Source: Candidatus Buchananbacteria bacterium CG10_big_fil_rev_8_21_14_0_10_33_19 (lineage in GTDB: Bacteria > Patescibacteriota > Patescibacteriia > 2-01-FULL-39-33). From it: a stretch of DNA of 64,000 nt. The notes beneath the pieces are model-generated. The model made no database searches. It was not told where the DNA came from and saw only the letters and a program-made list of their open reading frames with translations. The DNA lies in the NCBI GenBank assembly GCA_002773855.1, contig PEZY01000012.1, positions 297,613-361,612 on the forward strand, written 5' to 3'. A program made the translations under genes and the position numbers. Each line of letters opens with the position of its first letter. Positions within the stretch are counted from its first letter, which is position 1. Below, piece by piece: positions 9,570 to 39,776 of the stretch.

Positions 9570-10886
9570 ATGATACTATTTATATTATTTATAATTTTGG
9601 GAATTGCTTTTTCTTTGTGTTATATTTGGGGTAAAGAAAAATTTTCACCAGCTAATTTAATGTTAGCTGTTTGGTTAATATCTATTGGAGTAGCTCAATT
9701 ACGACTTAGTCCTCATGAAAATAAATGGACAGTTGATTTTTGGTTGGTTTTATTTTTATTTTTGGTATTGTTCTATTTATCTTTTTTGATTGTAAATAAT
9801 AAGATTGGTAAAAAAATTACCGATAATAAAAAAAATATTTTGATTGATAAAAAGATATTATTTTTTGTGGCTATAGGTTTAACCTCAGCCAGCTTGTTGA
9901 GTAATCTTTATATATTTTGGCAATTTAAAACCATGCCAATATTTTCATCTAGTCCGGATAGGATGAGATTTATTATTAACAAAAATATTTTTGGTTTATG
10001 GGAATATTTAGCCCTATTGCCTAGACTTTATATTCCGTTATTATTTTTTTATTTGTTATCAATTAAGAGTATATCTAGGAAATATAAATTATTTATTTGG
10101 CTAAATATTATTTTGGGTTTTCTATTATTATTTTTATACGCTTCTAGGTTGGTAATAATTTTGCCAATTTTGTTAACATACTTTGTCTATATTTATTTGA
10201 AAAAAAATAATATTACTTTTAAGAAAATAATTATTTCTTCAATATTGGTGTTACTAGTGGTTGGCTTTATATCTGTGGCTATTCCAGCTTTTCGTAATTA
10301 TATAACTTATAAAGATTATTATACTGACAGCCTAGATTATACGCCATTTACCTATTTGGTTAATTTATCCGGTATTGCTGTGCCGGCTGAATTACAATGG
10401 ATTATTCCATTATATATTATTCCTAGTTTTAATTTGCAGGCCATGCTACAAGCGACCACTTATTATAATACTAGTGTTAACAATTTTTATCAGGGTGCTT
10501 ATTATCTCACAGTTTTTAATCCACTTCTAAAAATATTACATTTGCCATTATCTAATGTGATAATACCCTGGGAGCCAATGTTTTTGTCTTGGTGGATAAC
10601 GGCGACATTTTTATTTTCGGCTTGGGCGGATTTTGGTTACTGGGGAATTATTTTTATAGCTATTTTATGGGGTATTATTTTAGCTGTAGCCTATCAATAT
10701 GCATCAAAAAAACCGACTTATTTGTCGATTATGTTAATGTCTTATTTTAGTTTTGTGGTGATAATGAGTATTTACACTGATTATTTGATGAGAGCCGAGT
10801 TTTATATAGATGTGTTTTTTATTTTTGTGACTGGCTATATTTTTTTGAAATTTAAAAATCAGACTACTCAAAAGATTGATCAATAA
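9570..10886 (+). CDS. polytopic membrane protein, possibly an O-antigen polymerase/ligase-like protein
   Basis: More than 10 predicted TM helices; sits inside the glycosyltransferase cluster. Confidence 0.4.
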   Translation: MILFILFIILGIAFSLCYIWGKEKFSPANLMLAVWLISIGVAQLRLSPHENKWTVDFWLVLFLFLVLFYLSFLIVNNKIGKKITDNKKNILIDKKILFFVAIGLTSASLLSNLYIFWQFKTMPIFSSSPDRMRFIINKNIFGLWEYLALLPRLYIPLLFFYLLSIKSISRKYKLFIWLNIILGFLLLFLYASRLVIILPILLTYFVYIYLKKNNITFKKIIISSILVLLVVGFISVAIPAFRNYITYKDYYTDSLDYTPFTYLVNLSGIAVPAELQWIIPLYIIPSFNLQAMLQATTYYNTSVNNFYQGAYYLTVFNPLLKILHLPLSNVIIPWEPMFLSWWITATFLFSAWADFGYWGIIFIAILWGIILAVAYQYASKKPTYLSIMLMSYFSFVVIMSIYTDYLMRAEFYIDVFFIFVTGYIFLKFKNQTTQKIDQ

Positions 10887-11805
10887 TATCTTTATTACCT
10901 AGTATAAAATCTTTAGCTTTTATTTTATTTTTGCCTTCAATTTGTAATTCAGATATTTCTAGTAGCTGATCGTTACAACCAATCAAAAATTTATCATTAT
11001 TGATTATTATTTTGCCGGCCAATGTATGTCCATCAGTGATGTTGACAGGTGGGAATATTTTTACCCGTTTTTTGCTTAGAGTAGTCCAGGCTGTTGGCCA
11101 GGGATAAAAGGCTCTGATTTGATTAGATATAATTTGAGCTGATTTATGCCAATTAATTTTAGCTTCTTCTTTGCTGATGAGTTGACAATAAGTAGCTTGT
11201 TCATCATTTTGAATAGTTGGAGCAATTTGGTTGCTGATAAATTTTTTAATAGTCTCAATCAAAAAATTAGTACTGCTATTGTCAGACATAATTTTATGTA
11301 GTGATTCATTATCTTCGTTACCAGCTAAGAGTAGCTCTTTTTGGGCTAAAATCGGCCCGTGGTCCATTTTAGCATCCATTAGCATGATTGTTATGCCTGT
11401 TTTGGTTTCGCCATTTAAGATGGCATTTTGAATGGGTGAAGCCCCTCGGTATTTTGGTAGTAATGAAGGGTGAACATTAATATTGCCTAACTTGGCAATA
11501 TTAAGTATTGCTTGAGGAATAATTTGACCGTAAGCCACAACTACCGTAAGATCTGGCTCCAAAGACTTCAGTTCCTCGATGATTTTAGTATCGGTTTTTA
11601 ATTTTTCTGATTGAAAGATTCTAATATTATTTTGGATAGCCACTGCTTTAACTGGTGGTATAGAGATGATTTGTTTTCTGCCAGTTGGTTTGTCTGGTTG
11701 GGTAATTATTCCTACAATTTCAAAATCGTTATTAAGTAAAGATTTTAAATAGGGGACGGCAAATTCTGGTGTCCCCATAAAAATTATTTTAGATGGTGCT
11801 TTCAT
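10864..11805 (-). CDS. fmt: methionyl-tRNA formyltransferase
   Basis: IIFMGTPEFAV..HPSLLPKYRGASPIQ motifs. Confidence 0.9.
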   Translation of the reverse strand: MKAPSKIIFMGTPEFAVPYLKSLLNNDFEIVGIITQPDKPTGRKQIISIPPVKAVAIQNNIRIFQSEKLKTDTKIIEELKSLEPDLTVVVAYGQIIPQAILNIAKLGNINVHPSLLPKYRGASPIQNAILNGETKTGITIMLMDAKMDHGPILAQKELLLAGNEDNESLHKIMSDNSSTNFLIETIKKFISNQIAPTIQNDEQATYCQLISKEEAKINWHKSAQIISNQIRAFYPWPTAWTTLSKKRVKIFPPVNITDGHTLAGKIIINNDKFLIGCNDQLLEISELQIEGKNKIKAKDFILGNKDIIDQSFE

Positions 11806-11806
11806 A

Positions 11807-12265
11807 TTAGTATTCGATATCTGCTAAGTCTTTAACCTTATCAATGAATAGTATGCCGTCTAAATGGTCTATTTCATGTTGAATAATTCTAGCTAATAAA
11901 CCATTGGCTTTAATGGTTTGTTCTTGACCACCTTCATTAAGATATTTTATAGTAACGCTTTTATGTCTTTTAACTTGACCGTATTTATGAGGAATTGATA
12001 GGCAGCCTTCTTCGTCCCAGTCTTTAAGTAATGATTTTTTGATAATCTTAGGATTAATAATGACTAGATCTTTGTCTTTGTGTCCAATAACCAATAATCT
12101 AATGTTTTGTCCAATCTGCGGAGCGGCTAGACCAACGCCATTACTATCTTTCATAGTTTCTAACATCTCTGGAATTAGCTTTTGAATTTTTGAATCTAAA
12201 ACATCGGTCACTTTTTGTGATTTTGTTCGTAAGATTGGATTGGGATGAATAATAAGCTTTAACAT
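11807..12265 (-). CDS. def: peptide deformylase
   Basis: GLAAPQIG, EGCLSIP and HEIDHLDG motifs. Confidence 0.95.
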   Translation of the reverse strand: MLKLIIHPNPILRTKSQKVTDVLDSKIQKLIPEMLETMKDSNGVGLAAPQIGQNIRLLVIGHKDKDLVIINPKIIKKSLLKDWDEEGCLSIPHKYGQVKRHKSVTIKYLNEGGQEQTIKANGLLARIIQHEIDHLDGILFIDKVKDLADIEY

Positions 12266-12306
12266 AACTATATTATGTTATAAAAAAGGTAAAAAGTCAA
12301 TAGTAT

Positions 12307-12651
12307 TTGGTGTCTAATTTACAAGAGTTAAGGTTTTTGGTAGAATCATTATTAATGAAAAAAGATGAAGGCCCTCAAAAATTAAGTGATCTGTTTGGTA
12401 AAATTGAACAGAAGAAAGCCCCTGCTCATGAGTGGCAAGATTTAGCTTTGCGTATAATTTCTGATTTAGGCGTGCCAAATTTTAAGCGAGGTTCGGTGTT
12501 TAAGATTTGCAAAGATAATACTAAAGAGAAGGTGGAAAGAGCTTATAATGATACTAAAGAGCTGTGTAAGAGTGGTGAAAAATGGAAATATTTTTTTAAG
12601 GTAATCGCTGATTCAGATAGTAATATTGAGCACAAAATAAAATCCACCTAA
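12307..12651 (+). CDS. hypothetical protein
   Basis: ORF with a hairpin terminator at its 3' end. Confidence 0.4.
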   Translation: MVSNLQELRFLVESLLMKKDEGPQKLSDLFGKIEQKKAPAHEWQDLALRIISDLGVPNFKRGSVFKICKDNTKEKVERAYNDTKELCKSGEKWKYFFKVIADSDSNIEHKIKST

Positions 12652-12668
12652 ATTAGGTGGATTTTTAA
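12642..12668. terminator. Bidirectional rho-independent terminator
   Basis: aatccaccta-aat-taggtggatt followed by ttttt. Confidence 0.6.
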
Positions 12669-12679
12669 ATTATTATGAT

Positions 12680-13471
12680 TTATTTTAATTCTAAATTGGC
12701 AGTTAAGTAGCCAACACCAAATGGAGCTTCATAGCTTAGAATTTTGGTTTCATAGTTGATATTATTTAGAATTCCTAGAAGTATTAATATTGAACGTAGT
12801 CCACATTCAGCAGCATTTCCAATGGTTTTTGTATCCATATTAACGATGCCCTGTGAATCACCAGCCTGTAGTAGCTTAATTAACCCCTCATCAAACTCTT
12901 TGCCAGCTGGATTGAATTTAGCTGGAGCATTCTCGGTTAGGCAATGAGATAAATCAGCCGAAGCGATAACAGCTATTCGCTTATCAGTGCTAAAAATTAC
13001 TTCTTTTAAGATTTTACCAAAGTCCAAGTGCGATTGATTATCTAGCAGTGAAAAATATATTGGAATAATTTTTATATTTTGTATATTTTGACCTAAACAG
13101 TAGAATGGTATACCAATACCATGGTCTAATTTAGTTTCAGATATGATATTAATTGGTGATTTACTGGATATTCTTTCCTTGTCATTGGTCATTAATAAGA
13201 TATCACCTTTAACAGGTATTTTGGTGGAAAAGTCGCCAAAATCTTCAAAATTAATTTCAAAGTTATCTGATAGATTGATAGTGAAATGATCAGCATTGGT
13301 GTGACCATGAGGTGAAATGATAATTAAAATATCTGGCTTAGCTGCGTATAGATCTCTTTCTAGGCTAGCTAGAGCTTCTTTGGTTTTGGTTATATTCTCT
13401 AAGTGTTCTTTGCCAATACTAGGAATAATTATTGGCGGGTGAGGGGATATGGCGCTAAAAACTAATGACAT
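12680..13471 (-). CDS. MEMO1-family protein (AmmeMemoRadiSam system protein B-like; class III extradiol dioxygenase fold)
   Basis: About 260 aa with the family's PHGH/DHG..LSH His-rich motifs. Confidence 0.65.
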   Translation of the reverse strand: MSLVFSAISPHPPIIIPSIGKEHLENITKTKEALASLERDLYAAKPDILIIISPHGHTNADHFTINLSDNFEINFEDFGDFSTKIPVKGDILLMTNDKERISSKSPINIISETKLDHGIGIPFYCLGQNIQNIKIIPIYFSLLDNQSHLDFGKILKEVIFSTDKRIAVIASADLSHCLTENAPAKFNPAGKEFDEGLIKLLQAGDSQGIVNMDTKTIGNAAECGLRSILILLGILNNINYETKILSYEAPFGVGYLTANLELK

Positions 13472-13606
13472 AAAGTTTAATTAAAAATTAAAAAATAAAA
13501 GTGTAAAATTAATGTATTGCTACGCAATGGTTTTTTAAATAAATTATGAGCATAGTGGACACTTGATTTTTTAGTTTTGCGTTTTAAGTTTTTAATTTAT
13601 TTCGTT

Positions 13607-14977
13607 CTACCAATCGCCAGTGATTGTTTGTCCTAATTGATGAGCATCTAAAGTTTCTTGGTTGACTGTTTTTATGTTGTCCCATTTGTAATTCATAGAT
13701 AAGAATATCTTAGAATTAAATATTGGTAGTTTTTTTTCATCAGAAATGACGTACACCGTACTAAGGTTCTTAACTTTAATTAATTCTCCGTCTGGCAGGG
13801 TAACTGGATTACCGGGACTGTAAATGTCTAGTTCGCTGGATGCTACTTTTTCGATTGGGACACTGCGGAAATTGGCGTTCATTATTTCTTTGTTGATGAC
13901 TAATTTTTTCTTACCACTGATAATATAATAAACATCACCAGTAGTTTTGTCCTGAAGTAGTTTGCCTGTTGGGTAGATGGTATTTTTGGTGATATTAGAT
14001 TCAGTTCTATACATTTCTAATTCATCGTTGCTAACTCCAATAATATCATCTTCAGTAAAGCCGATTTGTTTTAAGAGCTCTTCGTTTTCAATTTTTCTCT
14101 TGGTGTCATCAATAATCATATAAATTTCTTTAGCTGGATTCTGAAGTAGGGAAAAATTAAGGTATTCAATAGATGGGCCATCATCATAGTAATCTAAATC
14201 TGCTGGAGAAACCATAATTACTTTTTTAGGATCAAATCTGGATAAAAATACAGAGTTTGACACGATTTTTCTTTTGGTGCCATTTTCTATATAGTATTTG
14301 GCTGTGGAATCTTCATCTTGTAGTAATGAGCCATCTGGCCACTTTTTACCAAAATATCTATTCCATAAATCCCAAAAAAGTTTATTACCACCACAGTTAC
14401 CACCACAGTCAACATGGGGAGTGTAGGAATATAAGCCAGCGGTAGCGGCATTTTTAGGAGTAACTGGCAAATTATCAATAGTTCTGGTTACACCAGGTCG
14501 GTAATAATAATTTCCTGGATTATCTACATAGTCTCTGGTTTGTAAAGCAGCTGAATTAACTTGTTTAAAAAAACCTTGCCATCTAGAATTACAGCCACCA
14601 CCGTCAGGACAGCCATAGCCAGTAGCCCAATCATATTGAGTTTGTTTAGGGGCGGGATTATCTAAAAGGCTCATTTCTTTTTGAACAAGGACTAATAAAT
14701 ATTTAGGATTTATTAAGGCATCAAGAGCGGTTTTATAAAAGGTTTCAGCAGCAGTGATTGATTTACCTTCTTTATCAATAGTTACATAGTTTTTTAAGGT
14801 ACCAGGTCGTTTATCTAAAAAACGTTGAATGTCTTCTAAATCCATGGAATTATAATTAGTAATTTCTGAGTCAGAAATTAAATAATTTGGGTCAAATTCG
14901 GCAGCTAAGGCTGGATTAGATATTAATGTTGTGGCCACTAAAAATAGGGCTATAAAGGTAATTTTACAATTGGTCAT
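13607..14977 (-). CDS. secreted hypothetical protein (signal peptide; Cys/Gly-rich central region)
   Basis: N-terminal signal peptide ...NPALAAEF; no recognisable catalytic motif. Confidence 0.5.
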   Translation of the reverse strand: MTNCKITFIALFLVATTLISNPALAAEFDPNYLISDSEITNYNSMDLEDIQRFLDKRPGTLKNYVTIDKEGKSITAAETFYKTALDALINPKYLLVLVQKEMSLLDNPAPKQTQYDWATGYGCPDGGGCNSRWQGFFKQVNSAALQTRDYVDNPGNYYYRPGVTRTIDNLPVTPKNAATAGLYSYTPHVDCGGNCGGNKLFWDLWNRYFGKKWPDGSLLQDEDSTAKYYIENGTKRKIVSNSVFLSRFDPKKVIMVSPADLDYYDDGPSIEYLNFSLLQNPAKEIYMIIDDTKRKIENEELLKQIGFTEDDIIGVSNDELEMYRTESNITKNTIYPTGKLLQDKTTGDVYYIISGKKKLVINKEIMNANFRSVPIEKVASSELDIYSPGNPVTLPDGELIKVKNLSTVYVISDEKKLPIFNSKIFLSMNYKWDNIKTVNQETLDAHQLGQTITGDW

Positions 14978-15177
14978 TTTCTATTAGGTTTATTTATTTT
15001 TATTTGTTTAAATTATATCAGATATTTAAGATTTTTGGTATATATTCATAGACTTTTGATTTATAGTCAATTTATTTATGTTTTATGATGATTTTAGAGT
15101 GTCTTGATTTTTATCTATCTGATATTTCTGTTAAAATAGATGACAGGTAGAAATAGTGAATAAAAATAATTTTTCTT

Positions 15178-15900
15178 ATGAAAATAGATTTAGAAAATTT
15201 TGAAGATATAGAAAGAGATAAATCTTTTGATTACGGTTATTCTAGAAAAAAAAGAAAAAAGAAGAATAATTTAATTAGAATATTAATAGCTATCGTTGTA
15301 AGTTTATTAATAGTATTATTGATAGCTTATTTAACGTTGAAGTTTTTTGTTGGACCAATTGTTAAAACTGTTGATGGATTACCTGGTGATTTTCCAGCTG
15401 GTATAGATTTTTATCAACCTGATCAGGCTAAAATCAATTTAGAAGATCAAGTGGGGAAAGAGAAAATGATTTCTGGATTAAAATCAATGCCAGATTGGGT
15501 GCTAACTTTATTTTTAAATTTCTTGTCCGAAGACTTAAAAAAACAATTAGCCGATAATTTTGGTGATGATATTAATATTCCCAAAAATTTTAGTGTTGAT
15601 GATTTAAAGGAATCACTTAATGAAATTGATGTTAACAAAACTCAAACAGTTAATTTGTCGTGGGCCGGTGTTGATAAAACCAAAGAAGAAATTGCTGCTT
15701 ACTATAAGCAAAAATTAAAAGCTAGCAACTTCGAATTCAAAGAAAATTTAACTGATTATCAGATTAATTTAGGTTTTTGGAAAGATGGTGTCTTTGGTCT
15801 GATGTCTTTTACTGATCAAAAACAAGAAATAGACGGCGGCGTTAAATATAATAGTGATGTTGATATAACCGTTAATTATTTGAATGAATTACAAAAATAA
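15178..15900 (+). CDS. hypothetical membrane-anchored protein
   Basis: N-terminal TM helix following a basic stretch. Confidence 0.45.
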   Translation: MKIDLENFEDIERDKSFDYGYSRKKRKKKNNLIRILIAIVVSLLIVLLIAYLTLKFFVGPIVKTVDGLPGDFPAGIDFYQPDQAKINLEDQVGKEKMISGLKSMPDWVLTLFLNFLSEDLKKQLADNFGDDINIPKNFSVDDLKESLNEIDVNKTQTVNLSWAGVDKTKEEIAAYYKQKLKASNFEFKENLTDYQINLGFWKDGVFGLMSFTDQKQEIDGGVKYNSDVDITVNYLNELQK

Positions 15901-16646
15901 TGAAAAAAGAAATTTTAGGCGTTGGCCTTGATATTATTGATGCTGATCAAACAATATCAAAAATCACTGAGTATTTGCAATCAAATAAGCAGTATCATTT
16001 GGTGACAGTTAACCCAGAGTTTATTGTTGAATCTCGGGACAATAAAAAATTTAAAAATGTTTTAAATAAAGCATCACTGGCAGTTTGTGATGGTTTTGGT
16101 TTAGTATTAGTAACTCTTGGTAAATTAAAACGAGTCACCGGTGTTGATTTATCTGAGAGGTTGTTGGGTGGTGAAATTAAAAATTCCAAGGTTTTTTTAT
16201 TAGGTGGCACTAAAGATAACGCCAAAATATTAATGACTAAATACCCTGGCACTATTGTTGGAGCAGAACAGGGTGGTAATATTAATATTAAGACATACCA
16301 ATTAGATAATAATGATATTATTATTAATAAAATAATTAAAAGCAAGGCTAATATATTACTAGTAGGTTTTGGTCAGGTTAAGCAAGAGATGTGGATTAGT
16401 CAAAATTTAAGTAAAGTGCCAAATGTTAAGGTGGCTATAGGAGTTGGCGGCACTTTTGATTATTTGTCAGGTGATATAAAACGAGCGCCCAAATTTTTTA
16501 GATCATTGGGCTTGGAGTGGTTGTATCGATTAACCGCTCAGCCTCAAAGGCTTCGGCGAATTTTTAATGCGACCATTAAGTTTTTGTGGTTAGTAGCGCT
16601 CAACAAACTATTAAAATTAAAGCATCCTAAATTGACAAAAAGATAA
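15900..16646 (+). CDS. WecB/TagA/CpsF-family glycosyltransferase
   Basis: Size and conserved core match the N-acetylmannosaminyltransferase family. Confidence 0.65.
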   Translation: MKKEILGVGLDIIDADQTISKITEYLQSNKQYHLVTVNPEFIVESRDNKKFKNVLNKASLAVCDGFGLVLVTLGKLKRVTGVDLSERLLGGEIKNSKVFLLGGTKDNAKILMTKYPGTIVGAEQGGNINIKTYQLDNNDIIINKIIKSKANILLVGFGQVKQEMWISQNLSKVPNVKVAIGVGGTFDYLSGDIKRAPKFFRSLGLEWLYRLTAQPQRLRRIFNATIKFLWLVALNKLLKLKHPKLTKR

Positions 16647-21839: not shown

Positions 21840-22799
21840 TTATTGTCCACTGTGAAATTTTTTGTGAATATCTTTTAATTTTTTATTAGTAACATGCGTA
21901 TATATTTGAGTGGTGGCAATATTGCTGTGGCCTAGTAATTCTTGGACCGATCTTAGATCAGCGCCTTGATCTAATAAATCAGTGGCGTAGCTGTGTCTAA
22001 GGGTGTGAGGTGTAGCGTCTACTGGTAGACCAGCCATAACAGTATATTTTTTTACTAAATTTTCAATTGATCTAGACGATAGTCTGTGGTCATCATCGTT
22101 ATTATTGCGACTATAGTTGATAAACAGGGGAGTTAACATGTCATTTCTGGTCTTAAGGTATTTTGAAAGCCATTTTAGGGATCGATTGGAAAAATAGATA
22201 GTTCTAGTTTTGCCACCCTTACCATTAATAACTAATTCCTGGTCAGTGAACTTATTTGTAATCAGGTTATTGCGATTAAACTGCTTAACGTTAAGCGAAG
22301 TTAATTCTGAGACCCGGATGCCAGTAGAGAAGAGTACCTCTAGTATGGTTCTATCTCTTAAGCCATCAGGCTTAGATGTATTTGGCATATTTAACATTTT
22401 TTCAATTTGTTCAAAATTTAAAAATTTAATTGATTTATCTTTATCAGTTAATTTTGGTAATTTTATTTTGTCAGAGGGCAGTGAGATGATATCTTTGTCA
22501 GCTAAATAATTTAAGAGTATTCTAATGGCCCTTAAATAATAGCTTTGAGTAGTCTTTTTAATCCGTTTACCCTTATCATCCTGTTTACGTGATAAATAGA
22601 GTCGGTAGTCCCAAATATGGTCTGTAGTGAGCTCGTGGGGCTTGATATCAACTAAGTCATGATCCTTAAGCCAGTTTATAAACATTTTTAGAAAGTTATG
22701 ATAATTACGGGTTGATACTGGACTCAGGCCCTTTTCAACCTCACAATAGTCTAGGAAGTTAGGGATATGTTTAATTAGTGGAATATTAGATTTTTTCAT
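21840..22799 (-). CDS. tyrosine site-specific recombinase, XerC/XerD family
   Basis: Catalytic R (TGIRVSEL), HTLRHSYAT, and GHSNIATTQIYTHV (H..Y) motifs. Confidence 0.9.
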   Translation of the reverse strand: MKKSNIPLIKHIPNFLDYCEVEKGLSPVSTRNYHNFLKMFINWLKDHDLVDIKPHELTTDHIWDYRLYLSRKQDDKGKRIKKTTQSYYLRAIRILLNYLADKDIISLPSDKIKLPKLTDKDKSIKFLNFEQIEKMLNMPNTSKPDGLRDRTILEVLFSTGIRVSELTSLNVKQFNRNNLITNKFTDQELVINGKGGKTRTIYFSNRSLKWLSKYLKTRNDMLTPLFINYSRNNNDDDHRLSSRSIENLVKKYTVMAGLPVDATPHTLRHSYATDLLDQGADLRSVQELLGHSNIATTQIYTHVTNKKLKDIHKKFHSGQ

Positions 22800-22903
22800 A
22801 GTTTTTTGGTTCTTTACTTCTCTTATCCTCTGTTATACGAAGTTAAATATATTATAAAATAAAATTAGTAATCACTCAATAAAGTTATCCCCTGGCTCAT
22901 AAT

Positions 22904-22945
22904 GCATAACGCATAGCGTATAACATATAACGCATAACGCATAAC
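22904..22945. repeat. Six tandem 7-bp repeats (consensus GCATAAC) upstream of the recombinase gene, with related half-sites nearby
   Basis: GCATAAC GCATAGC GTATAAC ATATAAC GCATAAC GCATAAC, read directly; ACGCGTAAC at 22972-80; inverted GTTATGCAT at 23029-37. Confidence 0.8.
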
Positions 22946-23056
22946 TTATAATATGTAATACACAACATGTGACGCGTAACGGAAAATTTATTATTACTAA
23001 CTGCATAGGCTAGTGTTATGTGTTACTCGTTATGCATGGATGCTCTCCCCTATTTT

Positions 23057-23902
23057 CTACTTATAATATATTTTATCGCCGAATCTTAAGTCAATGTATT
23101 CCAATACCGAACGGTCTTTGACTTTATTATTTAAAACCATCTGCATATTTTCTATGGCCGTATCAAAGTTACTAGTAACATCAAAATGAGCTTGCCAGCC
23201 GAGCTTGGTAATAGCGGTTATTTCGTTCAATCCCCCGCTTTTATAATTATTTATCTCAATACCTAGAGATTTTAATTTGTCGTTTAATTGTAAAATAAAA
23301 TCAACAATAGTACTAGACACAGCTTCTGTCCCAATAGTTGTTTCCTTGTCAGTTAGCATTAGTGGAAATTCACTAATATAAATATTGCTTTCTTCTGGTC
23401 TAATTTCTCTAATAATTATGCCCTGCTTGTCAACAAAAAATAACTTGTCATTATTTTTAATTATTAGGTAATTAATCCTTTCTTTAATGTTAATAGTGAT
23501 TTTTTTCCAGCCACGTTTAATTGCTATTTCATCTAAGCCATATTTACCGCCAATAGCCTTAATTATATTTGATTTACTAATAAATAATATATTTTGTTGT
23601 GGTAGTATGAACCAGCGCCAATTATTAAGTTGTTCATCAACTATTTGTTCTAATTCTATTTTGTTTATTAGGTCAGCACCATTAACGTCAATGGTTTGAA
23701 TTTTAAATAAATCACTGTAAATTATAATGTATAACAAAAAAACACCTAAAAGTATTTTTAAATACAATTTAGTATTAAATCCTCCAGAATGCTCTTTTTT
23801 AACGGATCTAGTAAAATAAGGATTTGAGAAATGCTTTCTTTTGTAGTCTTTTTTGATCCTTATTTTTGATTGATAATTCTTATTAGAAAAATCTTTAATC
23901 AT
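23057..23902 (-). CDS. ftsQ: cell division protein FtsQ/DivIB
   Basis: N-terminal TM, POTRA-like domain, and position immediately downstream of ddl. Confidence 0.7.
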   Translation of the reverse strand: MIKDFSNKNYQSKIRIKKDYKRKHFSNPYFTRSVKKEHSGGFNTKLYLKILLGVFLLYIIIYSDLFKIQTIDVNGADLINKIELEQIVDEQLNNWRWFILPQQNILFISKSNIIKAIGGKYGLDEIAIKRGWKKITINIKERINYLIIKNNDKLFFVDKQGIIIREIRPEESNIYISEFPLMLTDKETTIGTEAVSSTIVDFILQLNDKLKSLGIEINNYKSGGLNEITAITKLGWQAHFDVTSNFDTAIENMQMVLNNKVKDRSVLEYIDLRFGDKIYYK

Positions 23903-33004: not shown

Positions 33005-33385
33005 TTATATTCTTTTTTTATAGCTTAAAAAGAAAAATTCTAAAACCACAACAGCGGCTACTAACAGGATGGTATTTAAGATATTTAACATTTTGGCACC
33101 TTGCAAGATTAAAATACTATCTACTAATAAAGCAAAGAAAAATGATTGCCTAAAAGAGGTGCCAACAATGCTGTATTCCAAGGAAAATTTATTGAAGGCT
33201 TTTCGAAAAGCAAAACTGGCTAAAAAGAAAGTGCCAAGGAGTGAAAATAATAAAGTTAAATAAAACAAAAGAAAACCAAAAAAATCAGTTTCGAAAGGAT
33301 TAATTTGTGAAACAATAGAAATCCAAATCACCCAGAATAAAATTGTAGCACAGGAAACAACGGTTAATAATTGCTTGATGTTCAT
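33005..33385 (-). CDS. hypothetical membrane protein
   Basis: 3 TM helices; TGcTATAAT extended -10 upstream at about 33425. Confidence 0.45.
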   Translation of the reverse strand: MNIKQLLTVVSCATILFWVIWISIVSQINPFETDFFGFLLFYLTLLFSLLGTFFLASFAFRKAFNKFSLEYSIVGTSFRQSFFFALLVDSILILQGAKMLNILNTILLVAAVVVLEFFFLSYKKRI

Positions 33386-33435
33386 AAAAAAAAATAATTT
33401 TATGTTATTAATTCTATTATAGCATAATTATTTGG

Positions 33436-33469
33436 ACAAATAAAAATCCCGTCGGTAAAGACGGGATTT
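33436..33469 (-). terminator. Rho-independent terminator closing the left end of the GC-rich island
   Basis: aaatcccgtc-ggtaaa-gacgggattt, a 10-bp perfect stem, with a minus-strand T-run. Confidence 0.65.
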
Positions 33470-33803
33470 AGAGAAGGGTGAACTGGAATGTTGTGAAACT
33501 GTATTTGAGAGAGAATCTCCAAACTAAAGTTGGAGAAATGCAATTTACAACATACCAGCATGAAATCCTTCCCTCAGTGAAAAATTATAGCACCCCTAAA
33601 AAATACAATCAATCTTTTTTTTAATTTTTCTGTGGATAAAAAAAATCTCTTCCATTGCGCCGTTAAGTTTCTAAAAATACTTAGACACTTAACGGGGAAA
33701 AAGAAGAGAGATTTTCTAGTCCTAAGACTTTAACTTCCCCGGTCAAATTAATAAGTTAATTATTAATTTGATTAGGGAGAGGAAGTATCAATGACGCCTC
33801 CTC

Positions 33804-34037
33804 TCAAATGGTTTCGACTGTGATCAGTGCCGCTTCGCTTTTTCGAATGGCAATGACACTATCATAAATTTTAAGGCGCATAGGGTCACCTAGTGGAGCA
33901 AAGCCTAAAACTTCAATCCCCGCTCCCTCAATGAAGCCCATTTCTAGTAGTCGTTGAAAGACAGCAAATACTGTTTCTTTTATTTCTACGACTATACAAA
34001 ATTGGCAGGCGTGTAACTTATCTAGAGTGGTGGTCAT
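33804..34037 (-). CDS. feoA: FeoA-family protein (orphan; no feoB present)
   Basis: RLLEMGF.EGAGIEVLGFAPLGDPMRLKI....IAIRKSEAALITVE matches the FeoA SH3-like consensus. Confidence 0.7.
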   Translation of the reverse strand: MTTTLDKLHACQFCIVVEIKETVFAVFQRLLEMGFIEGAGIEVLGFAPLGDPMRLKIYDSVIAIRKSEAALITVETI

Positions 34038-34105
34038 AATATAAAACCTCTCTTAGATGATGAGCGGGCTGACAGATTGGATCTGCAGCCCGCTAAATGT
34101 TGGGG

Positions 34106-34324
34106 TTAGACAGCTTCGGGACGAAGCTGTCTCATGAAGTCGAAGCAGTCAACTGCTCTGTCCTCAAGGACATCGGAGCGATGTACTGGACAACGAGAGC
34201 ATGGCGACGTTTCGTCTTCACAGATGAGTCCGCGTTGCAGAATTTCTTCTGCGGACAGCGTCTCCAATTCTGACATGGGATGGGCATGAGGACAATCCTC
34301 ACATTCGTTATGACACATGGCCAT
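34106..34324 (-). CDS. small Cys-rich protein (CxxxCxxC..CxxC), C-terminal DCFDF motif
   Basis: ORF in the GC-rich island; its 3' end is encoded by a perfect hairpin at 34109-34131. Confidence 0.35.
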   Translation of the reverse strand: MAMCHNECEDCPHAHPMSELETLSAEEILQRGLICEDETSPCSRCPVHRSDVLEDRAVDCFDFMRQLRPEAV

Positions 34325-34385
34325 AGCATTTCTCCTTATTCGGTTGCAATTGATCTAGTCCGAGAAATTCGGGCTAGTAAAAGAG

Positions 34386-34568
34386 CTACTGGGGATATTC
34401 CATTTCAGGGAAATGGAGGTCGAAACAGTCTGGACAATAGCCATGGCTAATGTCTCTCCTACCTTCGACGGACTGCTCTGTCCATGAGCCGTCAGTTTGA
34501 CGAACCTTTTTACATACGCAACATTGAACTACCATTGATGTACCTCCATAGTTGAATTTTCCCCACAA
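34386..34568 (-). CDS. small zinc-ribbon-like protein (CCVC...CPDC), C-terminal DCFDL motif
   Basis: ORF in the GC-rich island. Confidence 0.35.
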   Translation of the reverse strand: MWGKFNYGGTSMVVQCCVCKKVRQTDGSWTEQSVEGRRDISHGYCPDCFDLHFPEMEYPQ

Positions 34569-34648
34569 CGATACGAAGCAAGTTTGAACAAAATGGTCGG
34601 TCTCTTATAATATATATTTATTTGTACCGGTTTTGTCAAGTTTGCTTG

Positions 34649-34670
34649 TTAGTAGACCTACTAGTAAATA
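34649..34670. repeat. Inverted-repeat arm L (ttagtagacctactagtaaata)
   Basis: Partner arm at 34795-34819; about 17/20 of the aligned positions match the reverse complement. Confidence 0.5.
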
Positions 34671-34794
34671 TTTTTTGTTTATAAACTTTTATAATTTTGA
34701 GATAAATTTTTCAAATAATCTTTGCGGTTTAGAGGTTCTAAATTAAAAAGATTTTTGGAAATTTAGTCGAAATTTATAAGTTTTAACAAAAAGG

Positions 34795-34819
34795 TATTTA
34801 CTAGTGGGTCTACACCTAG
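34795..34819. repeat. Inverted-repeat arm R (tatttactagtgggtctacacctag)
   Basis: Reverse complement of arm L; the 120 bp between them is AT-rich. Confidence 0.5.
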
Positions 34820-35006
34820 CATGTCCCTCCTTCGTATCGGCGTGGAGAAAATTCTCCAATCGCCAGTTCATTAGAACAACTAATAGAGGATGACTGATGA
34901 AAAATAGATTTCATAAGGCCCTATTATGGTTGTGACCCGAAACATATAATTCGTAATTTGTTCCCTCCCCTATATGATTGTTCTAAAATAAATTTAATGT
35001 ACTCTT

Positions 35007-35120
35007 CAAAACTATCCCGTCAAATTGATTTCAATTCCCTCATAATTAACATTTTCTGGAATATTCTTTTTTAACAAGATAGTTTTGAGGAGAAATCTTT
35101 ATGGTTATTATGATTTCTCC
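35007..35120 (-). ncRNA. Structured repeat element, copy A (long-range helix plus terminal GC hairpin); strand tentative
   Basis: 5' arm caaaactatc pairs with 3' arm gatagttttg; hairpin ggagaaatc/gatttctcc. Confidence 0.4.
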
Positions 35121-35289
35121 AGATTTTGCTGGCGAGTATTATTTTCAAGTGGCATCCTCTACTGGTTGAAAAATAGTAGCCCTTTTCTCTAAATACGCAG
35201 ATCAGGCCACCAACTACTCGATAAGTGTGTAAAATTTTACCGTAACGAACTTCTAATAACTCTGATTGTGACATCTCACTATCCTCCAT
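35071..35289 (-). CDS. questionable small ORF overlapping copy A of the structured element
   Basis: From the ORF track; its C-terminus is encoded by the hairpin region. Confidence 0.15.
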   Translation of the reverse strand: MEDSEMSQSELLEVRYGKILHTYRVVGGLICVFREKGYYFSTSRGCHLKIILASKIWRNHNNHKDFSSKLSC

Positions 35290-35300
35290 GGTTTTTTACC

Positions 35301-35420
35301 AGAACTATCCAGTCAATCGATTTTATTCCCTCCTTTGTATTTTTTATAAATCAAGAAATGGAACCCTCATATTGACAAGATAGTTTTGGTGAGGAGCACG
35401 AGTTCAATGTCGTGCTCCTC
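35301..35420 (-). ncRNA. Structured repeat element, copy B
   Basis: Arms agaactatccagtcaat / attgacaagatagttttgg; hairpin gaggagcacga/tcgtgctcctc. Confidence 0.4.
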
Positions 35421-35427
35421 TGTATCT

Positions 35428-35631
35428 TTACCTCCACGGTTGGTGGTAAAGACATGTTCCGTGGTGTTCGCGCATCATAAACACCACGGAAAGGTCCATT
35501 GACAATTTTCTGGCTACCTTAACAGCCCCAACAAAACTGTCAAATACATAGATAAAGTCTATGCAATCGCAGGTGTAACCAAATACTGTATACATAAATT
35601 TCTCCTCTCGTTGTTGAAATGTACTACCCAA
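35428..35631 (-). CDS. small Cys-containing ORF (likely start MYTVFGYTCDCIDF...), preceded by copy C of the structured element and a GAGGAG Shine-Dalgarno
   Basis: SD gagaggag 8 nt upstream of the internal Met; shares the GYxCDCxDF motif with ORF 34386-34568. Confidence 0.3.
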   Translation of the reverse strand: MGSTFQQREEKFMYTVFGYTCDCIDFIYVFDSFVGAVKVARKLSMDLSVVFMMREHHGTCLYHQPWR

Positions 35632-35733
35632 AACTATCTAGCCAATCCCGTAAATCCTCTAAATTGATTTAAGTAGAATCAGCAGATTAGCGAGATGGTT
35701 TTGGGAGGGGCTGGACATCACAGGTCCAGCCCC
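35629..35733 (-). ncRNA. Structured repeat element, copy C
   Basis: 21-nt arms cccaaaactatctagccaatc / gattagcgagatggttttggg; hairpin ggggctggac/gtccagcccc. Confidence 0.4.
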
Positions 35734-36736
35734 AGAAAGGTTGAGTGCGCATGGACAACACACCCAAGAATGAAGATTGTCGGATCAAAGATCCTTATCA
35801 GGGCGACGCATCTAGATAACTAGCTGCCGCCCTTATAAGGAGCTTCGAATCTTTTTAACAAGAGATTAAAAGATTCACTCCCTTAAAACAAAAGAACCCT
35901 GGTTGGAGAGAGAGGGTTCCTTTGCGGTGACCACTATAATAAATATACTGGTGGTTTTTTCTCTCTCCTTATTGTGCTAGCATTATATCATATAACAGTA
36001 ATCTTGTCAAGTATATTGCTGGTTTTTTGCTAAAAATTAGCTAAAATTAGCTAATATTATAAACTTGTCAATATGATAAAATTGTGATGTAATATAGTTT
36101 TATGAAATTTAGTTACTTAGTATTTCTTATATTCGTTATTCAATGAGTTATATATCTTATCTCTTTCTATCTGTTACTTTTGTACCGCCAAAAGTAACCA
36201 AAAGCTCGCAAACGTAAAAAATCATGGCAATTTTATATCAGCTCGCTAGAGCCAATTAAACAAAACAGCGACCTAATAATTGTCTCTAACGCTCGCCTTG
36301 ATATAAAATTGACACAATATTTTTTAATGTTTGCATTTTTTATAATAAATATATAAATAAATTCGAGCATATGAAAAATTAAGTAGAAAAACAATAATAA
36401 ATTAAGCGTTTGTGAGTTGTCTACGAACAAATTTTTCGCATGTCTGAGCCATTTTCGACCTATCTAAATAAATAGAAAATGGTGAGTTCGGAAAATAGCG
36501 AAGATTTATTATAGTTTTTCCTTAATTTTATCATCGCTCGTAGTTTTTGTGTTACTTTTTGCTATCAAAAAGTGACGAGAAAAGTTATTAAAAAATGAGA
36601 TTGCTTCTTACCTCGCAATGACGTTTGTAGATGGAGTGTAAAGTAATAGAAATAAAGAAAATAATCTCTCTACCTCCCCCACCCGTATAGTTGCGGTCGA
36701 TATGACATGATAAAATAAAATAAAATTATAGATAAA

Positions 36737-36765
36737 AAAGACTAGTCATATGACTAGTCTTTTAA
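36737..36765. terminator. Perfect palindromic hairpin; bidirectional terminator downstream of the helicase-nuclease gene
   Basis: aaaagactagtcatatgactagtctttt. Confidence 0.65.
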
Positions 36766-36773
36766 AAGCATAA

Positions 36774-39700
36774 TTACGCTTTATGTTCACAAATACTGTT
36801 AAAGTCACAATAATTACACATCATCCCTGGTTTTGGCGGAAATTCCGCTTGTTTAATACCCTCTATATTTTTTATTAACTTGGCTTTGGTTTTTTCTAGT
36901 TCTTTGGGCGTACCCAGGAAAGAAACTTCTTTATTGTCATCTAAATAATGAAAAACCAATTCTTTGACGGGTTCTTTTAATACCTCTTCTACGGCCATTT
37001 GATAGATTAATAGTTGTTCTTTGTTATCAAAAGTTAATTTATCTTTAGCACTGCCGGTTTTATAGTCTACAATTCTGACTCCCCCATCTACTTTGTCTAT
37101 CCTATCGATCACACCATAAAGAGTAAAATTTTCTAAACCATTTTGAATATGTAAATTAAATGGATATTCTAAATACATAGTTTTGGGCCAATTGTCTTTA
37201 TTTTGTTCATAAAACTGTTTTAGAGATTTTTCACCTTTGATCCGGTATTTTTCTTTGGTGTCTCTGTCTGGAAACCAATCATCAATAAAAGATTCTTTAT
37301 AAATTTTGGCCATATCCTCCCAGTCGACATCTTTTTTGTCATGACTAGGTATTAATTCTAATTGACTAGGATTAATTCTTTTACTAACTAGTTCTAAAGT
37401 TTTTTGTAGACTGTTATGCATAGTGCGACCAAAAGAAAACTGTGGTTTACCTGGAGTCGGCACTTTTAAAATAAATGAAAACCGATACTGATAAGGACAA
37501 GTTTCAAAAGCTTTTAGTCGAGTAAAAGAAAATTTAGCTGGGAGCTTTGGCTTGATTTCTTCTTGGTAGTTTTTATTTTTAATGTCTTCTGATTCAATTG
37601 AGGTTTTAACCGTTTCCGATAAGGTTAAACCAATTGGTTTAAGTTCTTGGATAAATCTAGATATTTTTTTGGCTCTAGCCCCACCATAGTTCTCAGCCGA
37701 TGAAAAATATAAATTACTTTTGGCTCTAGTCATCGCCACATAAAATAGGCGTCGCTCTTCCTGAAGATGAATATCGCACTCTGGCACAATCTCTTTAATT
37801 AATTTGTCTGGCAAGCTAATGGCTTCGCCTTTGGCGGTAGTGGGAAATCTTTTGTCTACCATATTAGGTAAAAAGACGCATTCAAATTCCAAACCCTTGC
37901 TGGCATGAACGGTCATAATTTTTACCGTGTCAGGATCATCAGATTCGGTAGTTGATTTTAAGCTACCCTCTTCACCAGACTCTAATTCTAATTCTATTAA
38001 GTTCAAAAAACTTTTTACTGATTTATCACTGCTTTCTTTTTCAAAGTCTTGAATTTTTTTGAAGAATTGATTTAAATAGGCTAACTCCTCTAGATTTTTA
38101 GTAGAGTCTATAGTAGTTAAAGATTTAAGATAGCCAGATTTATCCATAAAGCCCTGAATGATTTCGGTAGTGCGTTTACCACTGGCGGCTATTTCTGAAA
38201 AATGATTGATTAATTTCATAATACTGGTAACTTTTTGTTGAGTGTCACCACTTATAACTTTTAATTCACCAGCTTGGCGTAGAGATTCATAAAGTGATAC
38301 ACCTTTGCGTCCGGCCCAATAGTTAAAATTCATTATTTCTTTGTGTGGTATATTCCAAAGTGGCATCGAAATAAAGCGGTACATAGCGACACTTTCGTGA
38401 TAACTATCTAGGAGTTTTAGGAAAGCTAGAATATTTAAAATAATATTTTTGGCATAAAGTCCTTTGGAAGCTAAGAAGTTATAAGGCACTTTGGCTTGCT
38501 CTAGGGCGTAGATAAATTCATTAGCACTAGAATTAGCTCTAATTAGAATAGCAAAATCAGACCATTTTAGATTTTCATTTTTATTATAAATATCAATTAT
38601 TTTATCAACTACCAATTTCACTTCGTCTTCTAAATTTTGACCATGAAGATGTTCTATTACTCCCTTTTGAGAATTATTAGCTAAAAGTTTTTTGGATAAT
38701 TTATTCTTTTTTTGATTGCCTTCGGCTAATTTTATCTCTAGACGGTATGGATTATTTAATTGAATGAATTGATAAGTTAAATCCAAAATATTTTGAGCGC
38801 TACGATAGTTGGTATTTAAAAATACTTCTTTAGCACTAGTATAGTCACTTTTAAATTGTAAGATGTTAGAGATAGAAGCACCCCGAAATTTATAAATCGC
38901 CTGATCGTCATCACCGACTACCGTGACATTGTTTTTGGGACTAGCCAGTAATTTAATTAATTCGTATTGAGCATAATTAGTATCTTGAAATTCATCAACT
39001 AAAATATATTTAAATTTAGCTCGATATTTAGCTAAAACATTTTTACGCTCGATAAAGAGTTTAAGTAAATAACTAATTAAATCGCCAAAATCCAAAGCAT
39101 TATTATCTAGTAGTAGTTGCTGATAGGTTTTGTAAGCTTTAGCTGTTTCTTCTAATTTTTTTAGTTCTTGGGCAATGGCTTGGTTTAATTCCTCGGCTTC
39201 TAATTCCTCCATAGCTTCTGGTTCCAGTAATTCGGCTGCTAATTTTATTTGGTCGTTGATAGTTAAAACGCTATCAACATATTTTTGATAATCTTCTGAA
39301 GTAATATTTTCGTCTTTGGCTCGAGAAAAATGTCTGAGTAAGTTATGAATGTATTTAGTAGGATTGCCTAATGGTTTGTAATAATCAATATCAAATTTAG
39401 ATAAATTGTTTTTTAACAGCATCCACTGACCAGTAGTTGAGAGTAATTTAAAATCAGTTGGCAAGCCAATTTCTAAACCATTTTCTTTTAAAATTCTTTC
39501 AGCAAAAGAATGGAAAGTAGAAATCCATAAATCAACATAACCATAGGGTAGTAGTTTATCAACTCGTTCTTCCATTTCACCAGCGGCCCTGTCAGTAAAA
39601 GTGAGGGCTAGTATTTCCTCTGGCTGACATTTGCCTTGTTCAATTAAATAAGCAATGCGACTGGTAATCACTGTAGTTTTACCGGTACCAGCTCCAGCTA

Positions 39701-39776
39701 CGATTAAAAGTGGCCCTTTATCATGGGTTACGGCCGCTACTTGTTGGTCATTTAAATTTTTAAGTAAATCTGACAT
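36774..39776 (-). CDS. UvrD/PcrA-family ATP-dependent DNA helicase fused to a C-terminal PD-(D/E)XK nuclease domain with a 4-Cys cluster (AddA/Cas4-like)
   Basis: Walker A GAGTGKT; helicase motifs; C-terminal ...FETCPYQYRF...MMCNYCDFNSICEH. Confidence 0.8.
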   Translation of the reverse strand: MSDLLKNLNDQQVAAVTHDKGPLLIVAGAGTGKTTVITSRIAYLIEQGKCQPEEILALTFTDRAAGEMEERVDKLLPYGYVDLWISTFHSFAERILKENGLEIGLPTDFKLLSTTGQWMLLKNNLSKFDIDYYKPLGNPTKYIHNLLRHFSRAKDENITSEDYQKYVDSVLTINDQIKLAAELLEPEAMEELEAEELNQAIAQELKKLEETAKAYKTYQQLLLDNNALDFGDLISYLLKLFIERKNVLAKYRAKFKYILVDEFQDTNYAQYELIKLLASPKNNVTVVGDDDQAIYKFRGASISNILQFKSDYTSAKEVFLNTNYRSAQNILDLTYQFIQLNNPYRLEIKLAEGNQKKNKLSKKLLANNSQKGVIEHLHGQNLEDEVKLVVDKIIDIYNKNENLKWSDFAILIRANSSANEFIYALEQAKVPYNFLASKGLYAKNIILNILAFLKLLDSYHESVAMYRFISMPLWNIPHKEIMNFNYWAGRKGVSLYESLRQAGELKVISGDTQQKVTSIMKLINHFSEIAASGKRTTEIIQGFMDKSGYLKSLTTIDSTKNLEELAYLNQFFKKIQDFEKESSDKSVKSFLNLIELELESGEEGSLKSTTESDDPDTVKIMTVHASKGLEFECVFLPNMVDKRFPTTAKGEAISLPDKLIKEIVPECDIHLQEERRLFYVAMTRAKSNLYFSSAENYGGARAKKISRFIQELKPIGLTLSETVKTSIESEDIKNKNYQEEIKPKLPAKFSFTRLKAFETCPYQYRFSFILKVPTPGKPQFSFGRTMHNSLQKTLELVSKRINPSQLELIPSHDKKDVDWEDMAKIYKESFIDDWFPDRDTKEKYRIKGEKSLKQFYEQNKDNWPKTMYLEYPFNLHIQNGLENFTLYGVIDRIDKVDGGVRIVDYKTGSAKDKLTFDNKEQLLIYQMAVEEVLKEPVKELVFHYLDDNKEVSFLGTPKELEKTKAKLIKNIEGIKQAEFPPKPGMMCNYCDFNSICEHKA

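Follow-up and report, generated by a model that had tools for sequence, protein, structure and literature searches.

A locus of conserved RNA structures and micro-protein genes restricted to one small clade of Patescibacteria

We analysed a stretch of 64,000 nucleotides (nt) of contig PEZY01000012.1 from Candidatus Buchananbacteria bacterium CG10_big_fil_rev_8_21_14_0_10_33_19 (hereafter the window, to whose positions all coordinates refer), in which a segment poor in open reading frames (ORFs) separates the gene of a membrane protein, mem126, from that of a helicase. We found this segment to be a real composite of structured RNAs and micro-protein genes, the latter comprising five tiny genes (ORF55, ORF67, cys49, cys72 and feoA), and to be restricted to one small clade of Patescibacteria. 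In at least five related species of Patescibacteria the core of the locus is flanked by the same two genes, those of the helicase and the membrane protein, and at least five elements of the locus (a leader with its terminator, the domain D1, a repeated hairpin, the rod D2 and a small RNA, or sRNA) are conserved with compensatory changes, which bears out one of two readings offered in a first-pass annotation of the window, namely that of a structured-RNA locus. As to what the locus does, we consider it on balance probable that transcription from a strong promoter, P1, reads through conditionally into small ORFs punctuated by hairpins, with the hairpins acting at the RNA level and promoting turnover of the ORFs. 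The elements of the upstream part of the locus are the following, in the order of transcription.

36037–36054, no strand assigned: two perfect TTAGCTAA palindromes, separated by 10 nt, just 5′ of the −35 element of P1.
35982–36010, minus strand: promoter P1 (TTGACA, 17 nt, TG-TATAAT).
35885–35975, minus strand: Seg0 leader, with an invariant 5′ GGAGAGAGA at 35968–35960, a variable hairpin and a terminator.
35925–35885, minus strand: intrinsic terminator of Seg0, with the invariant loop CUCUCUCC at 35912–35905.
35785–35875, minus strand: D1, a short stem-loop and a 27-bp rod-like hairpin (35849–35785).
35707–35733, minus strand: SL1(C), a GC-rich stem-loop adjoining hairpin C on its 5′ side.
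35627–35705, minus strand: hairpin C, with a C-type loop and a covariance-model score of 72.9 bits.
35428–35595, minus strand: ORF55, a micro-protein gene with the Shine–Dalgarno sequence GAGGAG.
35391–35420, minus strand: SL1(B), a GC-rich stem-loop of 11 bp adjoining hairpin B on its 5′ side.
35298–35390, minus strand: hairpin B, with a B-type loop (77.7 bits).
35071–35274, minus strand: ORF67, a micro-protein gene whose stop codon lies inside the 5′ arm of hairpin A.
35005–35089, minus strand: hairpin A, with an A-type loop (87.4 bits), the last of the array.
34871–34988, minus strand: D2, a long rod-like hairpin closed by UUAGAACAAUCAUAUAG / CUAUUAGUUGUUCUAA.
34829–34864, minus strand: the D3 hairpin and the 5′ strand of a long-range helix, whose partner strand (34554–34578) lies downstream of a second promoter-like element, P2.
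34652–34813, no strand assigned: an insert resembling a miniature inverted-repeat transposable element (MITE), 162 bp long and of 23% GC, with 33-bp terminal inverted repeats that are 82% complementary.

Relatives with a homologous locus were located through homologs of the small proteins, a pattern scan of metagenomes and local alignment. They comprise L027, a metagenome-assembled genome (MAG) of 45% GC, L092 with its identical or overlapping copies L093, L094, L100 and L102, L098, L104 with L105, and, on short contigs, L099, L101 and L103. The homologous segments follow one another in a common order in L027, L092, L098, L099, L103 and L104. On the transcribed strand this order begins with a TTAGCTAA-type palindrome, P1, Seg0 (absent in L027), D1 and a variable hairpin array, continues with D2, D3, the long-range helix, P2, cys49 and a variable cys72 and/or feoA, and ends with two hairpins (the second with a U-run), a third promoter, P3, the sRNA with its terminator, and mem126. 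The core (P1, D1, D2, cys49 and the sRNA) is syntenic even where the helicase of the relative is only 59% identical. As to the suggestion in the first-pass annotation that sister genomes be examined for the island, the representatives in GTDB hold no close sister, and the best matches of the helicase among them are Patescibacteria MAGs with at most 59% identity.

P1 is a perfect sigma-70 promoter, with 12 of 12 consensus positions and an extended −10, and a promoter is kept at its position in L027, L092, L098, L099 and L104. The TTAGCTAA pair, which has similar motifs upstream of P1 in all the relatives, may be the operator of some regulator. In the Seg0 leader 96.4% of cells are paired, compared to 39–52% in slid controls, seven pairs show compensatory changes and the sequence of the variable hairpin covaries. 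The loop of the Seg0 terminator is complementary to the 5′ motif of the leader, and this complementarity, together with the invariance, suggests that the two pair. Similarly, 96.2% of cells are paired in D1 (39–49% in slid controls), with six compensatory pairs and an innermost stem that varies by species (CUAG/CUAG, CUGG/CCAG, CCAG/CUGG). Seg0 plus D1 of the window folds with z = −6.5, and the uninterrupted leader of L027, 586 nt in length, with z = −11.1. The consensus fold of D2 and D3 has 48 predicted pairs, five of them with compensatory changes, and the long-range helix has 25-nt arms that are 88% complementary (inverted repeat I5), a pairing kept in L027. The MITE-like insert is missing at the orthologous site in L098, L104, L092 and L103, and no second copy of it was found within the 64-kb window.

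Between D1 and D2 are three two-part modules, each a stem-loop of variable sequence and then a hairpin of ~85 nt. Thirteen copies of this hairpin, from five organisms, share near-invariant arms of 18–19 bp (CCAAAACYAUCUUGYYAAU / AUUGRCNRGAUAGUUNUGG) and a covarying inner helix, and have three loop types with loops of 37–59 nt; 91% of their cells are paired, compared to 29–55% in controls. The variable stem-loop stands immediately 5′ of almost every copy. A module has a regular geometry of stop codon, 7–10 nt, variable stem-loop, hairpin, 17–40 nt, Shine–Dalgarno sequence and ATG. In the 64-kb window the hairpin motif occurs in three copies, all at this locus, rather than dispersed in the manner of repetitive extragenic palindromic (REP), enterobacterial repetitive intergenic consensus (ERIC) or Correia-type repeats. 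A search for the hairpin pattern in 241 million metagenome records returned seven contigs, all from this clade, and viral contigs gave no matches.

The content of the array differs from one relative to the next, as do the ORFs between orthologous hairpins, which are unrelated. The window has C, ORF55, B, ORF67 and A, L104 has B, ORF45 and A, and in L098 hairpins B and A are 17–24 nt apart with no ORF between them. L092 combines four unrelated ORFs with three hairpins, of which two are 98.7% identical; L099 and L103 carry further different ORFs; and in L027 the hairpins are absent and D1 and D2 are separated by 6 nt. Wherever a relative has hairpins and its contig reaches that far, hairpin A is next to D2. 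In the L092-like contig L101 (reverse complement, 1–1400), the end of one slot and the start of another meet at a hairpin, next to which lie a truncated tyrosine-integrase gene and what is probably a HicAB pair, recognised by eye in translations; the arrangement is due either to a mobile element within the array or to a chimeric assembly. The small ORFs carry Shine–Dalgarno sequences, and a third-position substitution bias supports coding in ORF67, cys49 and feoA. ORF67 has an ortholog only in L104 (ORF45, 81% identical), from which it differs 10, 6 and 17 times at the first, second and third codon positions, respectively, that is, mostly at the third. No homolog of ORF55 was found except itself, and comparison of the cassette ORFs with Pfam and PHROGs yielded only a weak ankyrin-like match for one L092 ORF.

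In all 10 hairpin copies tested, the transcribed strand folds better than its complement, by 4–12 kcal/mol, and the arms contain 22 U·G cells versus four C·A cells. Because of this better folding of the transcribed strand, and because several hallmarks of attC, the recombination site of integrons, are lacking (see below), we read the hairpins as modules that act at the RNA level, a function that we infer from their sequences. Two other candidate functions were rejected: a promoter in the hairpin arm (TTGRCN-16-TACATT), present in hairpins A and C and not conserved in the other copies, and micro-ORFs in the hairpin loops, which are not conserved either.

The downstream part of the locus and the genes on either side are as follows.

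34611–34639, minus strand: P2, promoter-like, with a TTGACA −35 and a weak −10, upstream of cys49.
34386–34535, minus strand: cys49, encoding a 49-aa putative zinc-ribbon micro-protein (CCxC ... HGYCPxC).
34106–34324, minus strand: cys72, encoding a Cys-rich protein of 72 aa, at the GC peak (51%).
34064–34095, minus strand: a GC-rich stem-loop that separates cys72 from feoA and is not followed by a U-tract.
33804–34037, minus strand: feoA, 77 aa, matching PF04023 over residues 4–75 (62.1 bits, cut-off 23, E = 5.1e-17).
33637–33778, minus strand: two hairpins (inverted repeats I1 and I20), conserved in L092, L098 and L104.
33584–33612, minus strand: promoter P3 (TTGATT, 17 nt, TG-TATAAT).
33440–33577, minus strand: the sRNA, ~135 nt, with the closing stem AGGGAAGG / CCUUCUCU, internal helices and a terminator at 33469–33444.
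33005–33385, minus strand: mem126, the gene of a 126-aa membrane protein, followed by pheS and pheT.
36774–39776, minus strand: the helicase gene (UvrD/PDDEXK, 1000 aa).

P2 and the stem-loop at 34064–34095 were read from the sequence. The −35 of P2 (TTGATA in L092) and its spacing are kept in L098, L092 and L104, and P2 would drive cys49, cys72 and feoA. Of the protein genes of the locus, only cys49 is present in all the relatives for which this stretch was recovered. Its family has 19 members across diverse bacteria with an invariant MVVQCCVCKK ... W ... SHGYCPxC, and no Pfam family scored above threshold. The protein reads as a zinc ribbon on the basis of an AlphaFold2 model (mean pLDDT, the predicted local distance difference test, of 84) and two Cys pairs; a PDB sequence search and Foldseek gave nothing significant. 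The weak Foldseek matches cluster on the Zn(Cys)4 region of the Fur family (Fur, Zur, PerR), which is suggestive given feoA in the operon but not significant. Apparent homologs of cys72 occur only within the clade, and the L098 ortholog is the sole one supported by score (E 1.2e-6), the versions in L104 (55 aa) and L092 (59 aa) being assigned by eye from a shared C-terminal motif; an exhaustive HMMER search returned clade members and repetitive false positives only. The stem-loop after cys72 also follows its homolog in L098.

The orphan feoA named in the first-pass annotation was confirmed by the Pfam match to FeoA, with no FeoB either in the 10-kb flanks or in a Pfam scan of 26 ORFs of the window, every ORF of at least 400 aa among them. 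The gene is found in three lineages only (the window, L104 and L103) and is absent in L098, L092 and L027. Of the two hairpins that follow, the second (33718–33637) has 38-nt arms and then the U-run, and is likely the terminator of the cys49 operon.

For the sRNA, the inner helices covary, with five compensatory pairs, and its covariance model, run against 40 sources, found it only in the window, L098, L104, L092 and L027. We rejected a role as leader-peptide attenuator of the downstream pheST operon because the 53-codon ORF crosses the terminator and is unconserved (in L092 it meets a stop after four codons), and because in relatives repeats lie between the sRNA and the next gene. RNAduplex revealed no sRNA site on the transcripts of the locus that is conserved across orthologs. 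The Rfam comparison proposed in the first-pass annotation identified no family for any island element: gathering and permissive scans with Rfam 15 of the window, the island, L027 and L092 gave nothing relevant, the matches in the window being two tRNAs elsewhere and the best sub-threshold matches of the island and its homologs having E ≥ 0.01 to microRNA or leader models. ARAGORN found no tRNA or transfer-messenger RNA in the island.

The region first drew attention as a GC-rich, ~50% GC island of 2.5 kb without long ORFs. The absence of long ORFs was borne out, over a larger gap than noted: since no ORF exceeds the 77 aa of feoA across 33386–36773, the ORF-poor gap spans 3.4 kb, mem126 and the helicase gene being the nearest ORFs of at least 110 aa on either side. 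Enrichment in GC is real but patchy, with 39.1% over 33440–35970 compared to 32.5% for the whole window; ~50% is reached only in 34000–34350 (cys72, cys49 and the stem-loop), which is the window maximum at ~3.9 standard deviations above the mean of 300-nt windows, the MITE-like insert has 23%, and other parts have 30–35%. By element, GC is 51% in cys72 and 47% in cys49, 35–40% in the folded RNA segments and 54–62% in the stem-loops; the GC peak is protein-coding (cys72 and cys49) and not RNA. GC at third codon positions (GC3) is 0.46–0.48 in cys49, cys72 and ORF55, against 0.25–0.30 in host genes. The remainder of the first description held: an intrinsic terminator on the left (33469–33444, minus strand), an AT-rich, non-coding right flank (36011–36773, 28% GC), every recognisable element on the minus strand, small Cys-rich ORFs (two) and repeated structured elements (three hairpin copies).

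According to the reading that we favour, P1 transcripts would normally end at the leader terminator, and read-through would occur when the invariant 5′ GGAGAGAG pairs with the terminator loop, or through a factor acting at this point. Between genes, the hairpin modules would act in the RNA as signals, much like RNase III sites, that serve processing, stability or the binding of proteins. They would also give each small ORF a short leader at its 5′ end and a defined stem-loop at its 3′ end. Their repeated, conserved sequence would moreover supply the homology for gain, loss and reshuffling of ORFs, and the patchy GC excess would stem from the Cys-rich genes (~50% GC in all hosts) and the folded RNA segments.

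Several points weigh against this reading. Transcription, read-through and processing were all deduced from the DNA sequence, and, with the locus in only five or six species, the compensatory changes reflect only a small number of independent events. Most of the strand asymmetry of the hairpins comes from about three alignment columns, the −10 of P2 is weak and the promoter scan did not list P2, and the reading does not account for the GC3 of cys49 and cys72 staying high. Furthermore, the arms are near-invariant across paralogs and species, beyond what pairing needs, which suggests sequence-specific recognition, equally by a DNA recombinase, and the rearranged junction in L101 is exactly at a hairpin, adjoining the truncated tyrosine-integrase gene.

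These last points lead to an alternative that we judge unlikely but worth weighing, in which an integron-like or Xer/dif-module-like platform uses the hairpins as its DNA recombination sites and a tyrosine recombinase encoded elsewhere moves small promoterless ORFs in and out between them. As in integrons, variable promoterless ORFs lie in one orientation downstream of one strong promoter, and the hairpins come close behind a stop codon and 17–40 nt before the next start, with 18–19-bp arms, an outer AAC...GTT and loops of 37–59 nt. The two 98.7% identical hairpins of L092, the two adjacent ‘empty’ hairpins of L098 and the L101 junction beside a truncated integrase gene all speak for such a platform. 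No integrase, however, is encoded within 10 kb on either side, and the sole tyrosine recombinase in the 64 kb (21840–22799) is 11 kb away and best described as XerD/XerC, with 100 bits for the integron-integrase model TIGR02249 against a cut-off of 265. The consensus of the attC R″ and R′ boxes is RYYYAAC ... GTTRRRY; the corresponding boxes here (CCAAAAC; GTT(N)TGG) agree at four of seven positions per side, as judged by eye. Pairing of the arms is in register and includes mismatches but neither extrahelical bases nor bulges, it is the transcribed (top) strand and not the bottom one that folds better, and hairpin types are unlinked to ORFs, B following ORF55 in the window but having no preceding ORF in L098 and L104. 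In the literature on integrons or attC in Patescibacteria or the Candidate Phyla Radiation (CPR), we found nothing pertinent.

With similar reserve we entertain a combined view, of low probability, that the hairpins form an undescribed CPR cassette platform, in which unrelated micro-protein genes are swapped at slots in a conserved, highly expressed structured leader and the hairpins are both RNA signals and recombination substrate. If true, such a platform would be a functional analogue of the integron without an integron integrase, and the 570-nt leader and cys49 could form a new RNA–protein regulatory unit.

The site between the helicase gene and mem126 is a variable hot-spot: a mem126 homolog comes after the helicase gene in many relatives, at an intergenic distance of 82 bp to 4.4 kb, and the space between them often holds a ~97-aa DUF721-like gene, missing from the window, and other genes. 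In L024 (41% GC), the same site has a 4.2-kb, 56% GC insert with small ORFs (12249–16464). This variability, the L024 insert included, the GC3 of cys49, cys72 and ORF55 above that of host genes, and the lineage-specific occurrence of ORF55 with hairpin C, of the MITE-like insert and of feoA would fit the other suggestion of the first-pass annotation, recent horizontal acquisition, with the island as a foreign segment (a decayed mobile element or prophage remnant) whose GC betrays its donor. We regard this as quite improbable for the island as a whole, whose core is syntenic in relatives with a helicase only 59% identical, and retain it only for the sub-parts just named as lineage-specific. Indeed, cys49 and cys72 keep 47–51% GC and a GC3 of 0.46–0.57 in three hosts of 30–33% GC despite a divergence of 40–50% between their proteins, which argues against recent arrival; the high GC of the two genes is a conserved gene property and not a mark of recent transfer. 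Moreover, there is no integrase, no flanking direct repeat and no phage-family match, and the present data lean to a host-congruent phylogeny of the locus, without near-identical copies in unrelated taxa.

Lastly, an assembly chimera or functionless debris of decayed genes, which the lack of a long ORF and the heterogeneous composition might have suggested, is effectively refuted by the 100% identity of the 3.4-kb region among contigs from six different samples, each assembled independently, by promoters, terminators and helices conserved with compensatory changes, by the codon-position signature in the small ORFs and by the lack of any detectable remnant of a DUF721-like gene. The region is neither an assembly artefact nor, taken whole, a recent foreign insert.

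Upstream of P1, the spacer at 36011–36773 consists of 763 nt of non-coding, 28% GC DNA after the helicase terminator (36763–36736). The possibility that it is a decayed DUF721-like gene was rejected, tblastn having found no remnant. Paired hairpins, GTTACTTTTG..CAAAAGTAAC, lie in the spacer at 36173–36203 and 36546–36576. Small palindromic repeats (CATTGCGAGG..GCAATC; GCCTGCCGGCAGGC) resembling REP-type elements recur intergenically, at 36591–36626 in the window, at 10757–10791, 11458–11493 and 9170–9200 in L098, and in L103. Elsewhere in the window, a second GC-rich (47–48%), ORF-poor patch at 54450–54745 is directly 3′ of tRNA-Gln (54745–54816, minus strand), and a permissive Rfam scan of it found the tRNA only. 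A change of sign in GC skew at ~22000–23500, adjoining the Xer-like tyrosine recombinase gene, may mark a replication terminus or origin.

CPR/Patescibacteria have small genomes with a high coding density, and their non-coding RNAs and gene acquisition are little known. To these the locus adds RNA structures that are supported by covariation and absent from Rfam, and a widely conserved zinc-ribbon family that no Pfam family covers above threshold. It is a compact natural case of conserved hairpins bracketing fast-changing small genes, and, should cassette turnover or RNA processing depend on these hairpins, would offer a tractable model of micro-protein gene flux in uncultivated episymbionts. 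It also holds a caution for genome scans, in that the strongest GC peak in an AT-rich genome can be due to tiny Cys-rich proteins missed by ORF-length filters.

Among known systems, integron cassette arrays and CALINs (clusters of attC sites without an integrase) resemble the locus in their strong upstream promoter, imperfect palindromes of ~80–95 nt, small ORFs in one orientation whose content differs by relative, and near-identical repeats within one array (L092). The locus differs from them in having no integron integrase nearby, no extrahelical bases, only partial R boxes and a better-folding top strand, and in that its hairpins are not tied to ORFs and its array is set inside a conserved structured leader RNA. 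Seg0 is like the terminator/antiterminator leaders of riboswitches and attenuators in its terminator ~50–90 nt past a strong promoter and in an invariant upstream sequence complementary to part of that terminator, but it matches no Rfam family and precedes non-coding hairpin domains instead of preceding a gene directly. GC-rich islands in AT-rich genomes are a classic signal for finding non-coding RNAs, and the folded RNAs of the locus are likewise richer in G+C than the AT-rich intergenic background, although its strongest GC peak is in coding sequence (cys72 and cys49). ERIC and Correia/NEMIS (neisserial miniature insertion sequence) elements are imperfect palindromes of ~80–130 nt that fold in mRNA and are dispersed in many copies across the genome; the hairpins are comparable in size and transcription-unit setting but confined to one locus. 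Finally, intercistronic RNase III hairpins, such as those of the phage T7 early region, are ~20 bp long with internal mismatches, lie between small, variable, non-essential ORFs of a highly transcribed operon, and leave a defined stem-loop at each upstream 3′ end. With a stem of 18–19 bp and an inner helix, the hairpins of the locus would be compatible in length with such processing sites, from which they are set apart by arms far more conserved in sequence than required, a conserved inner helix and three loop types.

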